A stretch of DNA of 63,214 nt, the filler included, from Collodictyon triciliatum (taxonomy: Eukaryota): NCBI GenBank assembly GCA_043381765.1. It is 8 parts of 8 records of this genome, joined end to end, with 100 filler letters (N's around TTAATTAATTAA, not from the genome) between each part and the next. Parts side by side here need not be neighbours in the genome. Positions count along the whole stretch, not along the records: positions 33,733 to 42,058 come from JBHJMP010003476.1; 7 more parts are not named here. The stretch is one strand, 5' to 3'. A model generated the notes under the pieces. It worked only from the letters and a program-made list of their open reading frames with translations, did no database searches and was not told where the DNA came from. The position numbers and the translations under genes were made by a program. This document shows positions 39,167 through 39,311 of this stretch, piece after piece. Numbering within the stretch: position 1 is the stretch's first letter; every line of letters begins with the position of its first letter.

Positions 39167-39311
39167 TTTGCCATACCTTGTAATCGCCTTTTACTGGGGT
39201 AGTATACCATCTTTCGATTGGCAAACCTGGTTCGCTAGTATCCAAGGTCTCACCACTTTTTTCACTATGGTCGTGTAGTGATGAAGGCTGCCAGTAGAGA
39301 CCCGACAGCCT
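39167..39311 (-). ncRNA. Candidate Fanzor omega-RNA (guide RNA scaffold)
   Basis: Immediately 3' of the Fanzor RuvC-III motif. Stem AGGCUGUC(39311-39304)/GGCAGCCU(39292-39285); its loop GGUCUC can pair with GAGACC(39251-39246) as a pseudoknot. Hairpin UCACUA/UAGUGA. Stem UUUGCCA(39225-39219)/UGGCAAA(39173-39167) enclosing AUC-GAAA-GAU and UACC..GUAA/UUAC..GGUA. The position matches known Fanzor/TnpB loci. Confidence 0.65.

Follow-up and report, generated by a model that had tools for sequence, protein, structure and literature searches.

A folded 3' tail of a broken Fanzor1 gene in Collodictyon triciliatum, probably a remnant omega-RNA scaffold

The DNA analyzed here (the window; 63,214 nucleotides of Collodictyon triciliatum, filler included) is composed of contigs mostly of ~8.3 kb joined by N linkers, and the locus of interest lies on the contig at 33733-42058. 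A broken, nearly full-length Fanzor1 gene occupies 39330..41247 of the minus strand, as assigned by tblastn and motifs, its 3' limit being approximate. In a tblastn search of the window with the intact 634-aa relative P0011, E values of 3e-44 and 4e-25 were obtained, and the alignment ran from 41247 to ~39240 on the minus strand through several frames with stops; with several frameshifts and stops, the copy is dead as a protein-coding gene. The RuvC D-E-D triad is readable as VDAGK (D), DEFRTS (E) and RDLN (D), as are the WED TDG motif (QTDG) and two CxxC motifs, and the arrangement that marks a Fanzor1, with the RuvC catalytic E just before the zinc finger together with D-E-D and TDG, was found as VDAGK, DEFRTSKMCHNC, RDLN and QTDG. 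The best solved-structure match of the read-through fragment was PpFz1 (9cf0; E 2.4e-6), and P0011 itself matches, among solved structures, only SpuFz1 (E 9e-37), PpFz1 (7e-34) and GtFz1 (7e-16). Judging from these comparisons, the nuclease is a Fanzor1, which confirms the Fanzor gene named in the initial annotation and refines its class.

Several other features were noted along this contig. An insertion before the ELSKHNS motif (39930-39990) is apparently shared with P0005 and, more briefly, with P0016, P0011-type proteins having none, and it is a possible marker of the subfamily to which the window copy belongs. At 40190-40260, inside the gene, there is a poly-C/poly-A stretch with an N run where sister contigs have 20-40 ordinary bases, which suggests a sequencing or assembly artefact. 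Further downstream, a host gene with introns runs on the minus strand from 38841 down to ~35660, with its start MKIIFGDEVGLVK ~330 nt below the element end; it gives weak WD40-type Pfam matches, has an Asp-rich tract at its end, and presumably resembles NSA1/WDR74.

Our main subject is a 145-nt stretch at 39167-39311 (minus strand), which begins 84 nt 3' of the RD codons at 39395 and thus lies just 3' of the RuvC-III codons, at the end of the element where omega-RNAs are located; because it forms the 3' tail of a Fanzor1 gene, a scaffold remnant is likely. All the helices drawn by hand in the initial annotation were located at their positions on the minus strand. The first stem AGGCUGUC/GGCAGCCU (39311-39304/39292-39285), drawn with 8 bp, extends to 10 bp, and the resulting hairpin (39285..39311), a candidate for SL1, is the best-supported helix, with pair probabilities of 0.71-1.0. 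A sequence check also recovered the UCACUA/UAGUGA hairpin (39281-39276/39267-39262), the UUUGCCA/UGGCAAA closing stem (39225-39219/39173-39167), the AUC-GAAA-GAU hairpin (39218-39209), and an arm made up of UACC/GGUA (39201-39198/39177-39174) and GUAA/UUAC (39194-39191/39183-39180). The stretch is GC-richer than its surroundings, as had been noted (0.47; the 87 nt below have 0.17 and the 145 nt above have 0.33); a GC content of 0.46 is found also at 38850-39079. An open frame spans the entire stretch, down to 39162, and part of the GC richness may therefore be coding in origin.

When compared with shuffled controls, the whole stretch folds better than chance, and on the minus strand only: the minus-strand fold has an energy of -43.3 kcal/mol (z -2.36; 2/200 shuffles as good), vs a z of -0.43 for the plus strand (57/200 as good). 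Among 30 overlapping segments scanned from 39700 to 38686, z was below -2 in three, all of which overlap the stretch. The sense strand is thus predicted to have a stable multi-stem fold; the z-score is modest, and the region had been picked because it looked folded. The unknotted ensemble contains a 9-bp helix UUCAUCACU/AGUGGUGAG, most of whose pairs have probabilities of 0.88-0.98. The pair probability of UCACUA/UAGUGA differs by run (0.0 vs ~0.33), and for this middle hairpin the minimum-energy fold departs from the reading based on homology. Rfam gave no match up to E 5 across 38500-42500. Modest folding in a region so picked, an open frame throughout and the absence of an Rfam match are what would be expected if the stretch were simply a GC-richer coding tail plus a transposon end, with incidental folding and a functional RNA that lies elsewhere or has eroded; against such an explanation, strand-specific folding peaks at the very place expected of a scaffold.

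To see what other copies look like, we used the contigs of four metagenome runs, which contain only 6-9% of the words, and compared them at 80% likeness; the statements on variants, loose ends and pieces refer to 40 of 682, 24 of 143 and 32 of 356 of these, respectively. Many diverged sister contigs cover ~41625 to 39209, their cover fading at the left side in the bin 41626-41700, and the flank below 39209 is covered only by near-identical contigs of the same site. Among the loose ends listed, four contigs (one in X1, three in X4) diverge from the window at 39209 and enter a U-rich tract like that of related elements. The segment 39209..39251, consisting of a further hairpin or hairpins and AUC-GAAA-GAU, is accordingly the last part common to the sister contigs with listed loose ends, and the last 40 nt of the window copy differ from the sister contigs listed. 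Since a near-identical contig spans 39029-39210, the end seen in the window is not an assembly error. The terminal segment at 39171..39208, which differs from the four sister contigs, by eye resembles the end of relatives (GGCG...CAAAGGUGUAA) with the U-rich spacer missing.

Other searches for close copies found no second copy of the stretch within the window and no close sister DNA when fragments were compared with viral contigs. An exact RNA pattern gave 0 matches, a gapped one 78, with a Fanzor at 0/78, and an 18-mer one, which is not a Fanzor; protein searches for a close sister gave 0, 1 and 1 matches. P0003 seems to diverge from the frame ahead of the RNA region and hence gives no information on that region.

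The ends of the element were approached through direct repeats. An exact repeat CAAAAATA, present at 39163..39170 on the right and at 41649..41656 on the left (minus strand), is a weak candidate for a target-site duplication; five exact repeats of at least 8 bases link the two AT-rich flanks, and this is one of them. It agrees with the end resemblance to relatives and with the fading of sister cover. It weakly suggests an element spanning ~41648-39171, and the right end is likely ~39171, within a few bases of that estimated originally; the candidate guide would begin at or just below 39170, in the AT-rich flank that had been named as its source. If this duplication is right, four bases of the 7-bp closing stem derive from host DNA. 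Because the closing stem overlaps the candidate duplication and the sisters diverge at 39209, the three-way junction that had been drawn looks copy-specific rather than a family feature, the UACC-GUAA/UUAC-GGUA arm not being shared as drawn by the four sister contigs. No convincing inverted repeat was found at the ends of the window copy (best match 9-10 of 14); TTTGCCTTTCC (41628-41618), matching the right end at 9 of 14, was not accepted. A longer repeat, TATAATAGT (41762-41754/39120-39112), is less likely as the duplication, since sister cover is lacking in X1 and X4 across 39104-39181. A copy of the putative guide with 2 mismatches occurs at 46704-46719 as a single AT-rich match.

Intact relatives provide a reference for such tails. 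We collected 105 related Fanzor1 loci (the metagenome scan kept 80 of 186), mapped 101 of them at the RD motif, recognized an end in 85, and retained 44 after removal of near-duplicates; the tail is structured, with z < -2, in 31 of these 44. The tails of these giant-virus and metagenomic elements (L001-L104; alignments A4, A6 and A7, models R1-R3) carry, in dozens of intact copies, a covarying 3' RNA core composed of P2, a lone C-G/G-C pair and P3, a bulge rich in A, a UUGAUUUUAC-type motif that hardly varies, a hairpin with a hexaloop, and stems that pair with the end of the terminal repeat. In an alignment of 24 of the 44, P2, P3, the hexaloop hairpin and the end-pairing stems were 86-97% paired, most with two-sided changes, and in a 30-sequence core alignment 92% of cells were paired with two-sided changes in 9/9 pairs, vs 35-51% pairing in slid controls, the structures having been derived from the same alignments that were used to score pairing. 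A tree-aware test on the 24 sequences kept two pairs, 120:132 and 51:91 (E ~0.02), both nested. Two pairings across the family, one between the A-rich bulge and the U-rich motif and one between UUUAC and the hexaloop, were seen by eye, showed no covariation and were set aside. A TTG(A/T)TTT(A/G)C motif is present in 40/44 relatives, and Rfam gave no match at the tails of the 6 loci that were checked. Inverted repeats of ~30 bp match at 11 or more of 14 positions in 32 of the 72 loci tested, two with a mis-called end and many not reaching the left end.

Two further observations on these relatives may be useful. In the intact L038 (1881-2036), the closing helix has switched partner, so that GGUUGCC finds its partner directly ahead of the core motif and the former 3' arm folds into a new hairpin; as read from its sequence, this locus shows that a scaffold core can be rewired. 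Four elements of ~3.3 kb (L001:138-3451, L002:132-3450, L006:169-3448 and L025:125-3452) are longer than the others by 0.5-1.3 kb on the left side and may contain a further gene, located upstream of the Fanzor.

The window tail resembles these relatives by eye in its inner part. A UUCA - hairpin - AAAAAAGU core at 39253..39286 looks like their covarying core, with a C39283-G39256 pair, A39282 and an A-rich 3' bulge, and is followed by AUC-loop-GAU and then by the GGCG...CAAGGU end; the minimum-energy fold of the window has the same order of elements. The family closing helix P2 is broken in register (2/5 pairs, by eye), the TTG(A/T)TTT(A/G)C motif is absent from the window tail, and blastn of the tail against 104 loci gave no similarity. 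Covariance models built from the relatives, run over the whole window, detected the stretch in 0/5 hits for R1, 0/10 for R2 and 0/9 for R3; the best R1 match (3325-3463, E 0.14) was treated as chance because no Fanzor adjoins it. R3 aligns 39286-39253 in the expected register at 7 bits, which is not significant (E 0.63 in 601 bases). The same model recovers 7/13 other loci at E < 0.01 and misses the intact L038, whose closing helix is rearranged, so that a miss does not exclude homology. Three family models without a significant match are again what incidental folding would give, and the register of the inner core and the miss of L038 speak against it; we consider incidental folding decidedly unlikely. 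The non-significant model scores, the missing motif and the broken P2 together indicate that the subfamily of the window copy has diverged, and relatives cannot settle its fold.

L038 also bears on which helix is the main one. A real scaffold might retain a P2 like that of the family, in which UGGCAG(CCU) pairs with (AGGU)UUGCCA immediately before AAUC; the first and closing stems described above would then be decoys. The 6-bp helix UGGCAG/UUGCCA exists in the stretch, and by eye its arms occupy the family P2 arm positions, before UUCA and before AAUC-loop-GAU, in a layout like that of L038; forcing it costs 13 kcal/mol (-30.5 vs -43.7) and its ensemble probability is 0.0, which makes a family-like P2 very improbable.

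The initial annotation had further placed a pseudoknot in the stretch, by analogy with TnpB. The loop of the first hairpin does match a downstream segment 45 nt away (GGUCUC/GAGACC, 39302-39297/39251-39246), and the proposed G-U extension exists as a seventh pair, G39303-U39245, giving a candidate helix GGGUCUC/GAGACCU within 39245..39303 (minus strand) that is present and unproven. With the first hairpin fixed and the downstream 118 nt shuffled, at least 6 Watson-Crick pairs to the loop arose in 398/2000 shuffles, and the duplex energy of the match was equalled in 286/2000 (196/2000 with a shorter downstream stretch); given the hairpin, the loop match is at chance level, occurring in 10-20% of shuffles. 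A strong hairpin and a 6-bp loop match occurred together in 4/500 whole-sequence shuffles, a rarity that in our reading mostly reflects the hairpin itself. The 3' arm of the knot has local partners as well, being overlapped by UUCAUCACU/AGUGGUGAG and containing AGACCU, which pairs with AGGUUU. Energies of the knotted fold were obtained from an approximation of our own with a Dirks-Pierce-type penalty (9.6 kcal/mol); by this rough estimate the unknotted fold is ~4 kcal/mol better (-43.7 vs -39.9 kcal/mol).

Sister contigs bear on the knot at one position. On the minus strand, 39295 is C in nearly all of the depth in three runs and 12 contigs (4.7/4.7 in X1, 39.8/42.8 in X2 and 13.7/13.7 in X4). 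With this base, 8/9 positions of a knot helix pair, a match reached by chance in 79/2000 shuffles (4%), and it lengthens the plain hairpin just as well, to 11 bp, burying two knot bases; strengthening both, the variant cannot choose between the two folds. The rough energies with the sister base are -36.3 or -31.9 kcal/mol for the pseudoknotted fold vs -40.3 for the unknotted one. In two X1 contigs the sequence departs from the window above 39294 and the AGGCUG arm is, by eye, missing, which counts against the knot, their consensus being mixed (agreement 0.78).

A knot may nevertheless be imagined that is internal to the scaffold and replaces the closing helix P2 in the subfamily of the window copy. 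The old P2 3' arm GGUGAGACC would pair with the first-hairpin loop (GGUCUCUCC in sisters), and GGCAGCCU, at the old 5' arm position, would pair upstream with AGGCUGUC, the UCA-hairpin-AAAAAGU core being kept inside. It is because the 3' arm of the knot lies at the P2 3' arm position of relatives, right after AAAAAGU and with P2 broken in register, and because the sister base strengthens it, that we keep this alternative; it would also permit the UCACUA hairpin predicted by homology, and the first-loop/junction column pair 19:93 of relatives ranks third in the tree-aware test (19/23 paired), at a non-significant E of 0.55. The analogous helix in alignment A4, by contrast, is 67% paired, mostly through U-G, a 6-bp loop match was found in 3/43 relatives with a 5' hairpin, none at p < 0.05, and there is doubt on steric grounds about a loop helix of 9 bp whose linker has only 1 nt. 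Considering also the energies and the burial of two knot bases in the 11-bp hairpin, we regard an internal knot as unlikely: the pairing is there, at a level not above chance, disfavoured by the rough energies and not seen in the related elements.

Even if real, such a knot would not be of the TnpB/Fanzor2 type, since its 3' arm (39251-39245) ends ~75 nt upstream of the predicted end at 39171, and the first-hairpin loop is not joined to the element end by any helix of at least 6 bp. In TnpB and Fanzor2, according to the accessible parts of the sources, the knot is formed by the ~5 bases with which the scaffold ends, next to the guide (PMC10432273, PMC10711439, PMC11832414, PMC13565253). The stretch does share with TnpB reRNA and with ApmFz2, a Fanzor2, a hairpin loop able to pair further downstream within a scaffold located at the right end; as far as those accounts go, the partner there is the last ~5 nt by the guide, bound by the WED domain (PMC10711439, PMC11832414), unlike the distant arm here, whose protein is a Fanzor1. 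In the accessible texts, Fanzor1 omega-RNAs are 75-150 nt long and have no pseudoknot (PMC11423790, PMC10432273, PMC10711439, PMC11832414), with lengths of 150 nt in GtFz1, 90 nt in SpuFz1 and 75 nt in PpFz1 (PMC11423790, PMC10432273); pseudoknot loss is stated there to be the hallmark of these RNAs, and the proposal is made that it left them free to associate with many types of transposon (PMC10711439, PMC13565253). The literature we found, as far as its text was accessible, contains no report of a Fanzor1 pseudoknot. The analogy with the TnpB knot is thus not supported for this element.

The window element is like GtFz1, SpuFz1 and PpFz1 in having a Fanzor1 protein upstream, an RNA position at the 3' end of the element, and a first stem-loop followed by others. 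Its length is closest to that of GtFz1, in which, as far as the available description goes, SL2 loop regions fold onto SL4, and the proposed knot has no counterpart in the three structures as described there. It is unlike them in that its gene is dead and its scaffold is predicted from the sequence, the likeness covering position and order of stem-loops. Its closest intact proteins found belong to the giant-virus and aquatic-metagenome elements (P0011; L001-L104), with which it shares by eye the tail order and the UCA...AAAAAGU core; they differ from it in having ~30-bp inverted repeats, a P2 that covaries and a TTGATTTTAC-type motif that is conserved, vs 9-10 of 14 matching positions, no such motif and non-scoring models in the window. 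The TA-bounded inverted ends of these relatives fit the PGv-1/Mariner type as far as it is described in the accessible part of Bao and Jurka (2013, PMC3627910), judging from the ends alone. Elements of this type have ~30-bp repeats ending in GGTGTA(A), and the window shows instead the candidate 8-bp direct repeat.

The identity of the gene, the position of the stretch, its strand-specific folding and the existence of diverged sister copies are observed; from these we infer the identity of the RNA, its exact fold and its exact end as follows: the stretch is probably the remnant omega-RNA scaffold of a dead Fanzor1 copy (~41648-39171, minus strand), with an unknotted fold. From the scaffold first proposed, the structured 3' tail of a Fanzor gene and the AT-rich guide flank are retained, and the knot, the TnpB analogy and the three-way junction are not. 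The RNA would most likely begin with a hairpin of 10-11 bp, to be followed by a stem-hairpin domain whose 3' side has a bulge rich in A, by further short hairpins, and by a terminal stem that uses the element end. In an active copy, the transcript would run through the 3' end of the gene and beyond the element end and would be trimmed to the structured scaffold plus ~15-20 nt from the flank; once bound to this RNA, the Fanzor1 protein would cut DNA matching the flank beside an AT-rich motif, and cutting of empty sites would favour return of the element. This guide-directed mechanism is established for other Fanzors in the accessible parts of published studies (PMC10432273, PMC10530073, PMC13565253), and we extend it to the window element.

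As best explained, the window stretch is one more decayed Fanzor1 tail, and the covarying core of dozens of intact giant-virus and metagenomic tails may be more useful, as it defines scaffolds and ends for intact enzymes that can be tested. A bolder proposal, to which we give little credence, is that the omega-RNA core has been remodelled in a Fanzor1 subfamily of protists: in place of P2 there would be an internal pseudoknot, or a switch with two states, that joins the first-hairpin loop to the segment following AAAAAGU. If true, the literature found would contain no earlier case of a pseudoknotted Fanzor1 guide scaffold, the knot would be unrelated to that of TnpB, and a different knot evolved anew would show how scaffold cores get rewired. 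Elsewhere in the window, on another contig, a fragment matching TCP-1/cpn60 chaperonin (E 1.3e-6) was found on the plus strand at 12005-12703, where it spans an assembly gap.
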